This document shows, in pieces, positions 6,592-21,322 of a stretch of 29,498 bases of DNA. The position numbers and the translations under genes are program-made. Below the pieces are notes generated by a model. It was not told the DNA's origin. It did no database searches and saw nothing but the letters and a program-made list of their open reading frames with translations. The DNA comes from a virus (Duplodnaviria; Caudoviricetes). The stretch is from positions 1 to 29,498 of IMG/VR virus record IMGVR_UViG_3300020042_004974; one strand, 5' to 3'. Position 1 is the stretch's first letter. Each line of letters begins with the position of its first letter.

Positions 6592-6813
6592 CTAGCCTCC
6601 ATAATACTTTATCAATAGGTCCATTGCTTTAATCAGCTTCATGTTGTTGACTACATCATCCGGATGTAACCAATATCCAGTAGGATTATTATCGTCCTTT
6701 GGATTGGCTTCCCATTGATCTAACTCCGATTGAAGGTATCTACGAGCCTCGATCAAGTTGGTCTTTGTAATCCCGTCAGCGACTTCAAAAGGAATTGTCA
6801 GGTCAGGTATCAT
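6592..6813 (-). CDS. Hypothetical protein
   Basis: Likely start MIPDLT at 6813; WLHPDDV motif. Confidence 0.7.
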   Translation of the reverse strand: MIPDLTIPFEVADGITKTNLIEARRYLQSELDQWEANPKDDNNPTGYWLHPDDVVNNMKLIKAMDLLIKYYGG

Positions 6814-6814
6814 A

Positions 6815-7036
6815 TTAATGTGTAAACATCGGTTGTGGTTTATCAAATTGCTTACTCTGTATAGTACTTAGCAGCTTATGAAAATCATCCTCTGAGCCTG
6901 TCTCTCTGCATGCCCATATCAAACGCGCATTGAATACAGCAGCAAGAGATAGCGGTGCTATTTGATGTTTATTTGACAAGGACGCTAAAATTTCATCAAC
7001 TTCGCGTGTAATTACAATTAATTGATCGTGGGTCAT
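6815..7036 (-). CDS. Hypothetical protein, first gene after an early promoter
   Basis: 73 aa; AGGAG RBS. Confidence 0.75.
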   Translation of the reverse strand: MTHDQLIVITREVDEILASLSNKHQIAPLSLAAVFNARLIWACRETGSEDDFHKLLSTIQSKQFDKPQPMFTH

Positions 7037-7060
7037 AAAATTCTCCTATCATTGTACACG

Positions 7061-7089
7061 ATTCTACAGTAAAACTACACGAATGTCAA
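7061..7089 (-). promoter_or_regulatory. Sigma70-like early promoter
   Basis: TTGACA-17 bp-TAGAAT. Confidence 0.85.
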
Positions 7090-7113
7090 CAGCCTAAATA
7101 TAAAGGCCATAAT

Positions 7114-7121
7114 CATAAATA
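7114..7121 (+). promoter_or_regulatory. T4-type late promoter (gp55-like sigma)
   Basis: CATAAATA, one mismatch to TATAAATA, upstream of structural genes; a second CTAAATA at 7094-7100. Confidence 0.7.
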
Positions 7122-7129
7122 GTACAAAA

Positions 7130-7226
7130 TACACACCTTAGGACCGTTATCTTGCAAGTGTGTACAAATGGAGGCCCCTGCCAACTACATCGCATAACGC
7201 CATTTGCGAGAACATAAGTGGGGCAC
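7130..7226 (+). ncRNA. Candidate structured RNA in the late leader (family unassigned)
   Basis: Six complementary segment pairs within 97 nt, including loop-loop pairings (see findings). Confidence 0.55.
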
Positions 7227-7247
7227 TAATTCAATAAGGAAAAAGAG

Positions 7248-7586
7248 ATGGCAGCCGATAATACAATCGATCTAGTAATCAATCAAAAGGCAAGTTTTGA
7301 AGTAACGTTCACAGTTAAAGAAGCTAACACTGCTCTTAACTTGACTGGATATACTACTTCTGCTAAACTAAAGACTGATTTCAATACACCAGACAGTCAG
7401 GCTATTACTTTTACTACAGCAGTTGCCAATGCTGCAGCTGGTCAAGTGACCATGTCACTAACACCAACCCAAACAGCCAACCTTAGTCTGCAACGCTACT
7501 TCTACGATTATACTATTACAGCTAATACTGGTTTTAAGACTCGTATTGTTGAAGGTACTGTTAAGGTAAGTGGCGGGGTGAGCTAA
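7248..7586 (+). CDS. Virion structural / baseplate-tail adaptor-like beta protein
   Basis: LVINQKASF..LNLTGY..GQVTMSLT..T..L..RYFYD..RIVEG.V.V pattern typical of BppU-N-like phage proteins; AAGGA RBS. Confidence 0.7.
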   Translation: MAADNTIDLVINQKASFEVTFTVKEANTALNLTGYTTSAKLKTDFNTPDSQAITFTTAVANAAAGQVTMSLTPTQTANLSLQRYFYDYTITANTGFKTRIVEGTVKVSGGVS

Positions 7587-8872
7587 TGACTACAGTTACA
7601 ACTACCCTCGTATCGGGTCAGAATGCACACGTTGGTGTTGTATCAAGCCGTGGTGAATATTCAGTAACTGTTAACAGTGGTGTACAAGGACCAACTGGCG
7701 CCAATGGCGTAAGCATTACTGCTGCTAACGTTGTTAGTGGTAATCTTGTTCTCACACTTTCCAATACATCAACGATAGATGTTGGAGGAGTTGTTGGAGC
7801 TAACGGAGCTAACGGATCGAATGGAGCTGCTGGTGCTAATGGTGTTAGTATTACTGCCGCTAACGTTGTTTCTGGCAATCTTGTATTAACATTTTCCAAT
7901 ACATCTACTCTTAATGTAGGAGCAGTTGTTGGGGCAAACGGTACTAATGGCAGTAACGGGACTAATGGAACAAATGGTACTAACGGAACCAATGGAACGA
8001 ATGGCACTAACGGAACAAACGGAGTTAGCGTCACAGCAGCAAGTGTTGCAACAGGCAATCTTGTAATTACATTATCCAATACATCAACAATAGATGTAGG
8101 TTCCGTAGCTACCAACGTTGCTGCTCCATACGCTTGGACTAACACTCAATCATTTTCTAACTCAGTCACATTTAGTGGTAGTGCGGTTGTTCCTTCTTCT
8201 AACACATTAGGAACAGCTCTTGGTTCTACTACTCAGCGTTGGGTGTTGATTGCAAACACCGGAACATTTAGTGGAGCAGTATCAGGTATTACAACACTAG
8301 CAACTGGTAATACAACCATCACCGGATTTGCTAACGTCACTACTACTATTCAGGGTGGTTCTACTTTAATAATTGCTGGTGCAGCTTCTGGCATTACTAC
8401 TCTAGCAGCTGGCAATACTACTATTACTGGTTTTGCTAATGTGTCGTCTACTTTGCAAGTAACTGGAGATACAACACTATCAGCTAACTTGACTGTCACT
8501 GGTAACGTGGCTGGCAACACAGCAGGCTTTGCAATCGGTTATAGGGATATACCACAGAACTTTACAAACACATCGATGACGTTAGCGTTAACCGATGCTG
8601 GTAAACATATCCTTACTCAGAACTCTGGTGCATCTACTCAAACGATTACTATTCCACCAAACGGTACAATAGCATTTCAAACAGGAACAGCTATTACAAT
8701 CGTTGTTCAATCAGCTGGAACAATAGCAGTAGCAAACGGCGCTGGCGTGTCAATGTACCTTACTGGTAACAGCACTGCTAAATCGACCGTAACTCTCAGC
8801 TCCTATAGTATGGCAACCCTACTGAAGATTGGTACAAATTCCTGGATTGTTAGCGGTACAGGAGCTACTTAA
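7586..8872 (+). CDS. Tail fibre-like protein with collagen-like Gly-X-Asn repeats
   Basis: G/T/S/A/N-rich; GxN triplets; internal repeats; C-terminal IGYRDIPQN...DAGKHI...ATLLKIGTNSW domain. Confidence 0.8.
   Translation: MTTVTTTLVSGQNAHVGVVSSRGEYSVTVNSGVQGPTGANGVSITAANVVSGNLVLTLSNTSTIDVGGVVGANGANGSNGAAGANGVSITAANVVSGNLVLTFSNTSTLNVGAVVGANGTNGSNGTNGTNGTNGTNGTNGTNGTNGVSVTAASVATGNLVITLSNTSTIDVGSVATNVAAPYAWTNTQSFSNSVTFSGSAVVPSSNTLGTALGSTTQRWVLIANTGTFSGAVSGITTLATGNTTITGFANVTTTIQGGSTLIIAGAASGITTLAAGNTTITGFANVSSTLQVTGDTTLSANLTVTGNVAGNTAGFAIGYRDIPQNFTNTSMTLALTDAGKHILTQNSGASTQTITIPPNGTIAFQTGTAITIVVQSAGTIAVANGAGVSMYLTGNSTAKSTVTLSSYSMATLLKIGTNSWIVSGTGAT
7697..8106 (+). repeat. Three ~30-aa NGVS.TAA.V..GNLV.T.SNTST..VG units separated by Gly-X-Asn triplets
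   Basis: Visible in the translation; degenerate 9-bp tandem array at 7931-8023. Confidence 0.9.
8282..8443 (+). repeat. Duplicated 19-aa unit SGITTLA(T/A)GNTTITGFANV
   Basis: Copies at 8282-8338 and 8387-8443. Confidence 0.85.
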
Positions 8873-9582
8873 TGGGCGGCATTATGCAAACGCTGCGTGG
8901 AAGCTTTAGCGTTGCAGCCAGTGGTCCAACATTAGTTATGGACTTGGATGCTGCAAACTATTCAGCTATTCCTAGTAATGGTACAACGATAGCGGGAACG
9001 GGTGCTTACACTATCACAACATTAAATGCTGGTAGCAGTATGTCATGGGCTGCTACTAACGGAGGAATATTTCGTAAGACTTCAGCTACTGCCACAGACA
9101 TGCTAACGTTCGGTCCAAATTATTCGTCAACCACTCAGGCCTATAGTGTAATGATGGTCTATAGATCGGTATCGGGCACGGCAGGCAGATTGTTGAATGC
9201 TAACACCGCAAGCCCAGACTGGTTAATGGGACTATGGGGCAGTGGTGCTGGCGTACAAGACATTTTCTTCAATGGAGCATTTGTGGGTAGTAGCAGTACA
9301 GCTCAAAACGGCTCTTGGAGATTTGGGTGGTTTACATTCAACGGAACCAATACTACAAATGCCTATGCCGCCGGTAGCACTGCACCAACAACCACACATG
9401 GAACTAGAGCCGGTACTGGTGGATTTAATGGATTGAGGTTGTTTGGTAGATTCAGTACCACTACAACAAACGTGGAAAATGTGACGGCCGATGTTGGTCT
9501 AGTCAAATTGTGGAGTGGTGCATTGACTCTTGCTCAGATACAAGCTGAGCATGCAACATATAAAACAAGATTTGGGTATTAA
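8872..9582 (+). CDS. Concanavalin A-like / LamG lectin domain virion protein (putative receptor binding)
   Basis: N-terminal LVMDLDAANYS and C-terminal VGLVKLWSGALTLAQI..EH..YKTRFGY, typical of phage LamG proteins. Confidence 0.8.
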   Translation: MGGIMQTLRGSFSVAASGPTLVMDLDAANYSAIPSNGTTIAGTGAYTITTLNAGSSMSWAATNGGIFRKTSATATDMLTFGPNYSSTTQAYSVMMVYRSVSGTAGRLLNANTASPDWLMGLWGSGAGVQDIFFNGAFVGSSSTAQNGSWRFGWFTFNGTNTTNAYAAGSTAPTTTHGTRAGTGGFNGLRLFGRFSTTTTNVENVTADVGLVKLWSGALTLAQIQAEHATYKTRFGY

Positions 9583-9593: not shown

Positions 9594-11711
9594 ATGGACA
9601 TAGAAACTCGCAAGAAAATATCCCGGGCAATGAAGGGGAAATCGAACTTTGAAGGGCATAAACATACGCATGCTTCAAAGATTGCCATTGCTTTCTCACA
9701 GGAAGGCCATAAAAACGCTAAAGATCATAAGTGGGCTGTTGATAAAGAGACGGGGAAAGAAACACGTATAAAGCCTGGCGCACACCTTCCTAGAGGGAAT
9801 AAATGGGGTCGCACAGCTGGGTTTAAAGAATGGATCAAGGAAGAAGTGTTGTTGGAAAAGAAAAAGGTTGCAGATGCTATCGAGGACTTTACTCAATTTG
9901 CAAAACAACACCTTAATTTAGATTCTCTTCCGCAGATAGATCTCAACTACGATTTAGAAGCAGCAGAGAAGTTTGGTGCTTTTGGTGGTTATTATCCAGA
10001 AGAGCAGCGTATTGAATTGAACGTTGCTGGTAGACACACAATGGATATTCTTCGTACGCTTGCACACGAGCTTGTTCACTACCGTCAAGGATCAACCGAG
10101 CCTTTGCCAGAGGATGCTGGTGATACCGGATCCCCATACGAGAACGAAGCAAATGCATTGGCCGGTGTTATGATGAGAGAGTATGGCCAACAAAACGCTG
10201 GTATGTTTAGTGAGAATTTTATTGATGGTCGTAATCCACAAGACAAAGGTGATGTGGCTCGCCACGGTTTAAAAAACAAAACTATGGCTCAATTGAAAAA
10301 GATTAGAAGTTCCAAAACAGCAACTCCAAGACAAAAACAATTAGCACATTGGTCTATCAATATGCACAAAGAGAGTGTTGTGATGGAAGATTTGCGTAAG
10401 TGGTTTAGAGAAAAATGGGTCCGTATGGACACTAAGGGTAACATTAAGGGTGATTGTGCAAGAGAGCCTGGAGAGGGGAAACCCAAATGTTTACCGTTAG
10501 CCAAAGCTCAAGCGATGGATAAAAAAGATAGAGCTACTGCTACTCGTAGAAAGAGAAGAGAAGATCCAAATCCTGATCGTCAGGGAGCTCCGATCAACGT
10601 AAAGACAGAAGAATATAATAACTCTGTCAAGAGATTAGAAGGTACAACAAGTCTTGCTAAGATCTATAAAAAAGATACACCAGGTCAAACAAACAAGACT
10701 CTGAAAGAGCAAAACATGAATGGCTATAATAATTGGAACAATGCTGAGCCCGTAAAGTATGCTAAACATCTAGAAAAGTTCTTTGGTAAACCAAAAGAGC
10801 TTACAGACAACAGAGCTATCTGGCATGATGTTGATAGCTTCAAAAGAATTGAAGTGTTAGATGAATATATTATGCATGCCTCTCCTGCCCCACACCACGA
10901 CTTCGTATACTGCTACCTAGATTTAAAAGTTCCAACCAACTTAGCAAATAAGTTAGCAGAGAGCAGCGAGAGCATAACGATTGACTTTTTAAAGAATGAA
11001 GTTGGGGCTAGATGTGCAAGCTTGGCAGCAAACGCAGTTACATTAAATTATGTTATGGACGTTGTAGAGAAGAAAATAACACCATCTAAACAAGCATATG
11101 AAAAAAGAATTATGGATATGCATGCTATGTTTGAGAATGGAAAGAGGTTTCAGCTTGACTGGTGGCCAGACACAACAAAAGATACAGATCCTAAAAACCC
11201 TTACTACAAACTAACAGAATCTTGTAACCATTCAAAAGAAGAAAATATGATTAACGAAAAGAATGTACCAACCCAACCAGAAAAATGGGCTCAAGCAAAA
11301 GCTCAAGCTAAGCAAAAGTTTGACGTCTATCCATCAGCATATGCTAATGGGTGGGCTGCTAAGAAGTATAAAGCAATGGGTGGAAGCTGGAAGTCGGTAG
11401 CCGAGGCTAGCTCACCAGCACAGCAAGCAGCAATAGCGATTGCCAAAAAGAATGATGAACCCGGACAGAATAAAAGATCTCTAAAACAACTAAGAGAAAT
11501 GATCGGCCAAAAGCCTAAGTGTGATGTTTGTGGTGATAACATGGTTCGTGGAAGAAAGCATGAGTGCACAGTGAAAGAAGCTCGCATGAGTGCTGCTATG
11601 AAACTTCACCGTGCGTTCACAAGAGAACAAGAGAAGTCTGCTGCTTCTCGCGCTCGTGCTGAGAAGTTGCTGAACCCTACACCTCCAGCACCCATCGTTC
11701 CTAAAAAATAA
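9594..11711 (+). CDS. Modular late protein (NUMOD3-like N-terminus, HExxH metallopeptidase-like domain, several basic modules); putative head-packaged protein
   Basis: RKKISRAMKGK; LRTLAHELVHYRQ...ENEANA; LRKWFREKWV...PKCLP; PSAYANGWAAKKYK.MGGSW; CDVC...HEC. Confidence 0.7.
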   Translation: MDIETRKKISRAMKGKSNFEGHKHTHASKIAIAFSQEGHKNAKDHKWAVDKETGKETRIKPGAHLPRGNKWGRTAGFKEWIKEEVLLEKKKVADAIEDFTQFAKQHLNLDSLPQIDLNYDLEAAEKFGAFGGYYPEEQRIELNVAGRHTMDILRTLAHELVHYRQGSTEPLPEDAGDTGSPYENEANALAGVMMREYGQQNAGMFSENFIDGRNPQDKGDVARHGLKNKTMAQLKKIRSSKTATPRQKQLAHWSINMHKESVVMEDLRKWFREKWVRMDTKGNIKGDCAREPGEGKPKCLPLAKAQAMDKKDRATATRRKRREDPNPDRQGAPINVKTEEYNNSVKRLEGTTSLAKIYKKDTPGQTNKTLKEQNMNGYNNWNNAEPVKYAKHLEKFFGKPKELTDNRAIWHDVDSFKRIEVLDEYIMHASPAPHHDFVYCYLDLKVPTNLANKLAESSESITIDFLKNEVGARCASLAANAVTLNYVMDVVEKKITPSKQAYEKRIMDMHAMFENGKRFQLDWWPDTTKDTDPKNPYYKLTESCNHSKEENMINEKNVPTQPEKWAQAKAQAKQKFDVYPSAYANGWAAKKYKAMGGSWKSVAEASSPAQQAAIAIAKKNDEPGQNKRSLKQLREMIGQKPKCDVCGDNMVRGRKHECTVKEARMSAAMKLHRAFTREQEKSAASRARAEKLLNPTPPAPIVPKK

Positions 11712-11714
11712 TGT

Positions 11715-12266
11715 ATGTACAGGATATTTCTTCAGTCTAAGAGGCTGATAGTCGTTGAGTCGACCGAAAAAGAGTTTAGACAGAAGTATCCCGGCCAATA
11801 CGAGCTTATCCAATCGGTTGCTGAGTATGATAACCTCGAGAAGGTGATCGAGCGTTTAACGAAGGATTATAAGGCCCAAGACGTAGTAAGAGACTACAAA
11901 GAGCTTAAGCGTTGGGGATGGAAGTATTTTACGGAAGAGATTCGCCGTAAATGTATTGAAGCTAGGATTGGTAAGCCTAGACCCCTAGAATCAAATGCCA
12001 AGGTCTCTGCGACCATGAAAGGCAAATCCAATTTCGAAGGAAGACGTCATAATCAAATTACAAAGATTATGATCGCATCTAGTCGCTTCGGTAAATCAAA
12101 TATCCAAAAAGGACAACGTTGGTGTCACCATCCCGAATCAGGAAAAGAGTTACGTTGTTTTGAGGAACAAAAGCCAGCAGGATTCAGATGGGGTAGAAGT
12201 CCCGAGTTCAAGGACTATATCAACTCAGCCAAGCGTGTTCGTGTGCTTGTTGATTCGGAGACTTAG
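11715..12266 (+). CDS. NUMOD3-type DNA-binding protein (homing-endonuclease-derived, no clear nuclease motif)
   Basis: KVSATMKGKSNFEGRRH...RW....GKE.R....P.GFRWGR. Confidence 0.65.
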   Translation: MYRIFLQSKRLIVVESTEKEFRQKYPGQYELIQSVAEYDNLEKVIERLTKDYKAQDVVRDYKELKRWGWKYFTEEIRRKCIEARIGKPRPLESNAKVSATMKGKSNFEGRRHNQITKIMIASSRFGKSNIQKGQRWCHHPESGKELRCFEEQKPAGFRWGRSPEFKDYINSAKRVRVLVDSET

Positions 12267-21247: not shown

Positions 21248-21322
21248 TGGTGGGCCGACCTGGAATTGAACCAAGACTCAAGGCATTATGAGTACCCTGC
21301 TTTACCATTAAGCTATCGGCCC
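21248..21322 (-). tRNA. tRNA with CAT anticodon, most likely tRNA-Ile2 (alternative: elongator Met)
   Basis: GGGCCGA/TCGGCCC acceptor, D-stem GCTT/AAGC, loop CTCATAA, T-loop TTCAATT, encoded CCA. C4:G69 and C5:G68 favour Ile2; paired 1:72 argues against initiator. Confidence 0.93.

Follow-up and report, generated by a model that had tools for sequence, protein, structure and literature searches.

Genomic context of the RNA element

The window, that is, the whole stretch of DNA that was analyzed (29,498 nucleotides), is a 29.5-kb record that originates from a T4-like phage. It contains an RNA element at positions 7130 to 7224 (+ strand), located between a leftward gene that starts at 7036 and a rightward open reading frame (ORF) that starts at 7248. 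The word CATAAATA (7114 to 7121, + strand), which resembles a T4-type late promoter, is found 8 nt ahead of the first stem. A sequence-only reading of this stretch had placed the element directly after a late promoter; the word is present, but it is not significant in the window, where words of this type are not enriched (3 instances of YATAAATA versus 5.0 expected). Among 98 relatives, 11 have ATAAATA in the 60 nt ahead of the element, versus 2.8 in shuffles. No gene on the same strand lies upstream of the window copy, and a divergent sigma-70-like promoter for the leftward genes (7061 to 7089, − strand), matching the consensus at 11 of 12 positions, is outside the RNA. The AAGGA ribosome-binding site (7236 to 7240, + strand) is likewise outside the fold, 11 nt after position 7224, which agrees with the spacing given in the earlier reading.

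The downstream ORF (7248 to 7586, + strand) encodes an LtfC-like tail fiber assembly protein (PF23926, E value of 1e-5; phrog_3304) and is followed by a collagen-like fiber gene. In L363, L375, and L563, the element directly precedes the orthologue of window ORF 9594, and the three fiber-related genes at 7248 to 9582 appear to have been inserted in the lineage of the window. ORF 9594-11711 is a mosaic of several PHROG fragments, including a metalloprotease-like stretch, and has a short MKGKSNFEG motif in common with the adjacent ORF 11715-12266. The window contains a single tRNA gene, with a CAU anticodon (21251 to 21322, − strand).

A conserved fold with one pseudoknot

The RNA of about 95 bases consists of a stem-loop domain and an H-type pseudoknot (stems S1 and S2) with a hairpin arm inside the third loop. 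In domain 1 (7130 to 7164, + strand), stem P1 pairs 7130-7136 with 7158-7164 in seven Watson-Crick pairs that show covariation and closes a 21-nt loop, inside which many relatives carry an additional hairpin, P2. Stem S1 (7169 to 7183, + strand) pairs 7169-7171 with 7181-7183 (U7169-A7183, G7170-C7182, and G7171-C7181). Stem S2 (7174 to 7224, + strand), which closes the element, pairs 7174-7177 with 7221-7224 and includes C7178-G7218 and U7179-A7217; it is paired in 96.6% of alignment cells, with compensatory changes. Arm P4 (7184 to 7216, + strand) occupies pseudoknot loop 3 and carries a hairpin (7190-7194 with 7205-7209) over an internal loop. Its sequence varies while its length is constant, the distance from CUGCC to the loop CG being 13 to 15 nt in 78 of 90 members. 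The outer S1 pair, formed by the base before GG(C/A)G and the base after CUGCC and exposed by mutual information, is complementary in 92 of 99 elements and occurs in five types (A-U in 36, G-C in 33, G-U in 14, C-G in 5, and U-A in 4).

The alignment was developed from 60 of 112 representatives, which yielded a sequence model; 96 hand-picked loci followed, structure was added, and 100 sequences were realigned (A4). Before fitting to structure, 69.4% of cells were paired versus 60.3% in shuffled alignments; in A4, whose 100 rows were fitted to the structure, the values were 78.8% and 59.9%, and none of 500 shuffles reached the former. Partner-swap tests, which are independent of column alignment, support P1, P4, and S2. 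RNAalifold found almost no structure on a plain MAFFT alignment because stem lengths differ among members. Taken alone, the window strand shows no unusual stability (z = −1.19), and 30 of 200 shuffles fold equally well. Counting flanked pairs inside helices on the + strand, G-U versus A-C combinations number 62:0 in S2, 13:0 in P4, and 9:8 in P1, where the ratio is uninformative; the G-U pairs of S2 and P4, together with the direction of the neighboring genes, identify the + strand as the RNA.

The earlier reading had described a multi-pseudoknot RNA built from six pairings. All six can be drawn in the window, but only three stems hold among relatives: the outer stem (7130-7136 with 7158-7164), the distal hairpin TCGCA/TGCGA, and GCCCC/GGGGC, which is part of the 7174-7179/7217-7224 stem, all of which covary in homologues. 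The inner AGGA/TCTT pairing is present with one G-U, but a hairpin there is possible in just 6 members of a 112-member set that held at least one false member (L409). In the same set, the loop-loop pairing CGTTA/TAACG, although drawable, has its 5-bp form in 20 of 112, with its three variable pairs formed in 35% of cells, and a 5-bp pairing of the AATGG/CCATT type is possible in 3 of 112. These three pairings are predicted features of the window copy and its nearest kin. There is one supported pseudoknot, and its stem S1 had been overlooked. Rfam 15 gave no match at an E value of ≤10 for window positions 7040 to 7300 and the element of 20 relatives likewise had none at an E value of ≤1; together with the covariation among homologues, this upholds the proposal of a structured RNA outside known families.

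Distribution of the family

The sequence anchors suggested earlier as a check did recover homologues, with covariation in A4: they returned at least 120 loci, and about 570 stretches are estimated for IMG/VR. With two further anchor sets, the estimated numbers were about 590 and about 760, the latter including chance matches. A scan with the CUGCC, loop, and AAGUG anchors alone was set aside as mostly chance, with the guide 1 word described below in 27 of 119 rows. The window's own subfamily comprises 18 loci. A profile search found a single copy in 20 of 20 long contigs, including 6 of 6 near-complete ones, and the carriers belong to two distant phage groups, of about 160 to 200 kb and of 320 to 355 kb, with major capsid proteins that share about 35% identity. 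Large uncultured lake phages thus each carry one copy of the RNA in their genome.

Among 185,579 prokaryote genomes (GTDB), 64 pattern matches included three full elements (L387, L398, and L434), all on short phage-like contigs in metagenome-assembled genomes; four Ignavibacteria look-alikes were rejected because they correspond to the codons of a protease gene on the opposite strand. A metagenome scan returned mostly rRNA genes (55 rRNA, 47 other, and 6 elements among distinct rows). Three members used as BLAST queries against 50,697 annotated phage records had short chance matches only, and the element is absent from five cultured T4-like relatives (DLP_6, Melnitz-1, phiN3, Mosig, and S-SRM01); a weak match in Mosig (E value of 0.011) was rejected because it lies on the opposite strand of the Mosig tmRNA gene. 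Permuted tmRNA was found in seven of eight carrier genomes (G047, G049, G051, G052, G053, G055, and G056), and that of G052 is unusually long (L527, 8174 to 8753). The tmRNA of G056 is of a betaproteobacterial type, which points to Proteobacteria as hosts; this genome further encodes 25 tRNAs, a peptide deformylase, and FolE/QueD/QueE-like genes.

Complementarity to 23S rRNA

The main feature of the RNA, which the sequence-only reading overlooked, is its complementarity to 23S rRNA. With Escherichia coli rrlB as the 23S reference and E. coli numbering, a segment reaching from P1 into its loop (guide 1; 7135 to 7150, + strand) is antisense at 16 of 16 positions to 1916-1931, which comprises the H69 loop end, the H69 3' strand, and 1925-1931. 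The distal loop of P4 (guide 2; 7197 to 7204, + strand) is antisense at 8 of 8 positions to 1969-1976. The guide 1 match is the longest to any rRNA on either strand of the whole 29.5-kb window; none of 3,000 base shuffles of the element reaches 16 nt, and the analytic chance is about 1e-4. A random 11-nt loop has at least 8 matches to the 1929-1980 region with a P value of 0.004.

The guide 1 core is near-invariant in the family: when scans used anchors elsewhere in the RNA, 125 rows passed a tail filter, some of them chance rows, and 100 of these 125 have an exact 10-nt core. The distal loops fall into three classes, antisense to 1929-1937 (class 1, the most common), 1969-1978, or 1964-1969, and these account for 108 of 112 members; 1929-1980 is the best-scoring of 339 rRNA windows for distal loops. 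Guide 2 has therefore switched between adjacent rRNA strands, and six close relatives are without the distal loop motif. Guide 1 is longer where guide 2 has moved or is absent, averaging 11.8 nt in class 1 (n = 64), 12.8 nt in the other two classes (n = 25 and n = 4), and 15.0 nt in the six members without guide 2, comparisons for which P values are optimistic since members are related and the counts are sequences, not independent events. A CUA extension covering 1931-1933 is found in 12 of 35 non-class 1 versus 2 of 64 class 1 members. A third guide is present in 18 distinct elements with GGCGUC, which are antisense over 6 to 11 nt to 1825-1835, the strand partner of 1972-1975 in the Rfam model; AGGCGUC has only one site in 23S plus 16S rRNA. 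All of these target strands belong to a single 50S junction, at which the large subunit meets the small one. In addition, 11 of 100 members contain the word TAGTTA, which is antisense to the loop of H69.

The sampled Proteobacteria, E. coli among them, have a conserved target. The Rfam model shows no canonical pair for most of 1925-1944 and 1963-1971. The predicted duplexes of guides 1 and 2 have energies of −26.8 and −11.7 kcal/mol, versus −6.4 for the H69 hairpin. Among 22 substitutions in guide 1, 13 retain a G-U pair and 9 are mismatches; in full elements with a change opposite G1922, three of four retain a G-U pair. Such wobble-keeping changes are ordinary transitions. Further matches of 7 to 10 nt also pile up elsewhere in rRNA because the family sequence is conserved; none is as long, and nowhere else do several separate segments converge on one place.

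Guide 1 lies in a closed loop, which restricts its pairing, and can be masked by an internal CCUAAGG (3 of 99 in A4 and more outside A4). In the masking subfamily (L003, L024, L041, L070, L083, L108, L049, and L276), this word is identical to 23S 1924-1930. In 11 members with both GGCGUC and an ACGCCA-type or related loop, the two can pair mutually. Guide 1 is lost in L719, and both guides have mismatches in L646, with the scaffold kept in each; these two and L269, which keep the pseudoknot while guide 1 or guide 2 is lost or degraded, constitute natural negative controls. No guide variant matching actinobacterial 23S rRNA, such as true compensation for a host sequence would produce, was found (15 hits).

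Several other resemblances to rRNA were observed. In its commonest form, the pseudoknot core is antisense as well to the conserved 16S segments 519-528 (62 of 100) and 348-357 (63 of 100), for example in L245 (798 to 895, − strand); this complementarity is absent from the window copy and may be due to chance, as variants break the 16S matches and keep the internal pairs. The core words GGCGG and CUGCC equal both strands at the base of 23S H68 (1903-1907 and 1833-1837). Two jumbo carriers contain exact 17-nt 16S matches, near position 15160 of L519 (16S 28-44) and near position 7306 of L510 (16S 84-100).

A conserved, exposed seed complementary to a target RNA is what characterizes trans-acting small RNAs, and such a seed is found here. 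From these matches we consider it highly probable that the RNA pairs with 23S rRNA.

Gene neighborhood and transcription

The proteins encoded next to 155 distinct instances form 116 clusters, 72 of them singletons, and the largest cluster comprises 40 downstream genes without a Pfam match. In the closest relatives, the gene that follows the element is GH19 lysozyme-like or is orthologous to window ORF 9594; among the relatives checked, an LtfC-like neighbor recurs only in L378 and its identical copy L542. An AdoHcyase gene is adjacent in four instances. A promoter-like site is found 3' of the element in 27 of 98 members versus 6.7 in shuffles, and a terminator follows it in just 4 of 98. Such a context is better suited to an RNA gene using a borrowed transcript than to an element that regulates a single gene.

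In three lake metatranscriptomes, out of eight RNA runs, contigs run from within the element into ORF 7248 at a depth of 2 to 7, for which DNA carry-over is possible. They represent a low-depth leader joined to that ORF, and no separate abundant small RNA was seen in the three runs; stretches of 6700 to 8000 that lack RNA contig cover carry no meaning. Contigs of two runs both begin at 7145-7146, inside guide 1, which might faintly hint at processing or a reverse transcription stop, and the third run reaches 7131.

These contigs, which connect the element with ORF 7248, would be expected if the element stayed in the phage message and caught the 50S subunit in cis for reinitiation or for loading of a late leader. 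A same-strand gene lies upstream in 96 of 110 members, and P1 starts −10 to +14 nt from the upstream stop codon in 56 of 100, which also suits a tether of this kind. However, phage tRNA genes are packed alike: of 28 examined, 14 have an upstream ORF, and 11 of these start −10 to +10 nt from it, so that closeness to a stop codon was dropped as evidence for a role in cis. The next start is 4 to 153 nt away, often with a new promoter between, the window copy has no same-strand gene upstream, and there is one copy per genome with changing neighbors. The calicivirus termination upstream ribosome-binding site (TURBS) lies at a fixed distance from the restart site, where it pairs with rRNA of the small subunit. 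It resembles the phage element as a viral RNA segment complementary to rRNA close to a stop codon, whereas the phage RNA matches the large subunit, has no fixed downstream start, and occupies a leader position in the window; fixed stop-start geometry of the TURBS kind was not found. A cis-acting tether is therefore unlikely, if the first of the alternatives to be weighed.

Alternative functions and comparison with known RNAs

The RNA could instead guide a phage or host enzyme that modifies or cuts 23S rRNA near 1929-1931, with the pseudoknot as a protein scaffold. The core of the pseudoknot is invariant, beyond what pairing alone explains, the arm has a fixed length, and the two exposed loops of class 1 together cover the continuous stretch 1922-1937, as such a guide might require. 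Against this, guide 2 keeps its register yet targets three sites, and six members are without it; movement among three sites fits a general grip better than chemistry at one base. No RNA-modifying enzyme was found in 65 of the 86 G056 proteins common to a jumbo carrier, a set in which about 25 of the 65 have no Pfam match, SNase-like and HNH nucleases are present, and the 21 left out of the scan are mostly obvious T4 core genes. No partner protein emerged among the carrier genome proteins scanned. Box C/D guides are rRNA-pairing snoRNAs of archaea and eukaryotes, as described in PMC4644070. The phage RNA is like the rRNA-pairing snoRNAs in being a small structured RNA that directs short separate segments against nearby strands of conserved rRNA; it differs from them in its bacterial target, its movable guide 2, the lack of C/D or ACA boxes, and the lack of a partner protein among those scanned. 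Box C is found in 0 of 100 members (CUGA anywhere in 18 of 100). The guides lie in two separate domains, and an ACA 3 nt from the end is found in 0 of 100. H/ACA guides and the folding chaperones U3, U8, and U14 also pair with rRNA. An enzyme-guiding role appears improbable, slightly more so than a cis tether.

The same complementarity, with several guide positions covering one region, would also serve an RNA that shields the H69-H70 region from a host defense toxin that cuts rRNA, and the carriers do invest in translation upkeep (tRNAs and tmRNA). Such pairing would presumably itself disturb the subunit interface, and no such toxin was identified in this analysis, which makes a protective mask very unlikely.

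Nearly the same low likelihood, or one a little lower, attaches to a self-cleaving ribozyme or processing signal acting on its own transcript, with incidental rRNA complementarity. The compact pseudoknot, invariant bases, varied neighbors, and, faintly, the 7145-7146 contig starts would suit one, but the third RNA run extends to 7131, and the convergence of several separate segments on a single rRNA junction would be left unexplained. There is no Rfam ribozyme match, hammerhead and twister loop words occur in 0 of 100 members, and no catalytic core consensus of known ribozymes (hammerhead, twister, pistol, HDV-like, and others) was found. Twister likewise has the short words CUGCC and AAGUG flanking a hairpin arm; the phage RNA differs in that it has no twister loop word, its stem below is closed, and GCC pairs with an upstream GG.

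The earlier reading had proposed a riboswitch or protein-bound operator gating the downstream tail fiber genes. The leader position behind the late promoter-like word, the alternative pairings drawable in the window copy, and the four adjacent AdoHcyase genes would accord with this, but no downstream gene or pathway is constant among the 116 neighbor clusters, the ribosome-binding site lies outside the fold, and neither the alternative pairings nor the SAM-II-like words that it pointed out are conserved (UUGCA..AAAU in 1 of 100 and AAAUG in 2 of 100). A constant position 5' of related genes and an expression platform, which mark riboswitches, were not found. SAM-II and preQ1-II are also H-type pseudoknots, and the loop 3 hairpin recalls preQ1-II; the phage RNA, unlike these, has no Rfam match or gene association and keeps the ribosome-binding site outside the knot. 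A switch for the tail fiber genes is accordingly highly unlikely, and the RNA likely grips host ribosomes instead, to judge from the guides.

A DNA-level decoy, homing site, or captured rDNA relic is scarcely credible: the matched 23S stretch presumably overlaps rDNA sites of homing endonucleases and group I introns, but the segments are split and reordered within a covarying RNA fold whose changes tolerate G-U, and no LAGLIDADG_1 domain was found in eight of eight carrier genomes searched.

A proposed trans-acting RNA on the 50S subunit

The reading that we consider somewhat probable overall is that of a programmable multiguide RNA, encoded by large lake phages, that acts as an anti-association or ribosome-remodeling factor by invading the 50S subunit of the host at the H67-H70 junction. 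It would be the bacterial world's first natural equivalent of the snoRNAs that pair with rRNA, and its guides would evolve by shifting from one rRNA strand to a neighboring one. The more specific proposal, that the RNA acts in trans on free or immature host 50S subunits and prevents their joining with 30S, is held tentatively, as a serious possibility. The RNA would be cut free from a longer transcript, a late leader in the window and the 3' end of the upstream message in most relatives. Its loops would then target adjacent strands of the 23S helix 67-70 junction on 50S subunits whose helices 67 to 71 are loose, either late precursors or subunits after splitting; helices 67 to 71 are unstable in 45S precursors, according to PMC3737534. 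Guide 1 might nucleate on 1922-1929 and then invade the H69 stem, while guide 2 would supply a second grip. Opening of H69 would remove bridge B2a and thereby keep 50S from 30S. The phage might gain by recycling stalled or hibernating ribosomes, by halting the maturation of new ribosomes, or by host shutoff; plain inhibition is hard to rationalize because the phage needs the host's ribosomes. Against action in trans are that only leader contigs were seen, that terminators are few, and that guides are self-masked or decayed in some members.

Artificial antisense agents offer a parallel. According to PMC7038079 and PMC9040758, oligomers directed to H69 and H68 inhibit translation; both also cite the inhibition of E. 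coli growth by peptide nucleic acid (PNA) against H69. Like the phage RNA, these PNAs are antisense to the 50S interface, and they bind 50S (H68); the phage RNA differs in being natural, centered on 1920-1937, equipped with extra grips, and putative in its effect. Its relation to regulatory RNAs is similarly mixed. Bacteria and phages have trans-encoded base-pairing small RNAs, some of them derived from 3' untranslated regions. The phage RNA shares with them a seed of 8 to 16 nt, a single copy, and an own promoter or mRNA end as its source, but it targets rRNA rather than mRNA, carries two or three seeds on a pseudoknot, and mostly has no terminator.

To our knowledge, no natural RNA of bacteria or phages acts by pairing with 23S rRNA, and none was found in the literature searched. 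The same literature gave no description of the RNA. The motif word is absent from one supplement of PMC10085705 and six files of PMC10690425, and the portions of PMC8545117 and PMC10085705 covered contain nothing on the RNA. PMC10690425 is a catalogue of 8,495 anonymous IMG/VR structures, and the fold may be listed without a function in its supplements or in those of PMC5737381. The RNA family is, on its covariation, real and apparently undescribed, and its function is putative.

E. coli 23S rRNA has the conserved target, so that purified ribosomes and a transcript of 95 bases are enough to put the claim to the test, with no need for phage culture. If the RNA binds 50S, phages would control host ribosomes by RNA as well as by protein, and viruses that infect bacteria would have their own analogue of rRNA guide RNAs. 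The natural guide variants would then map the subunit interface strands that an RNA can reach.
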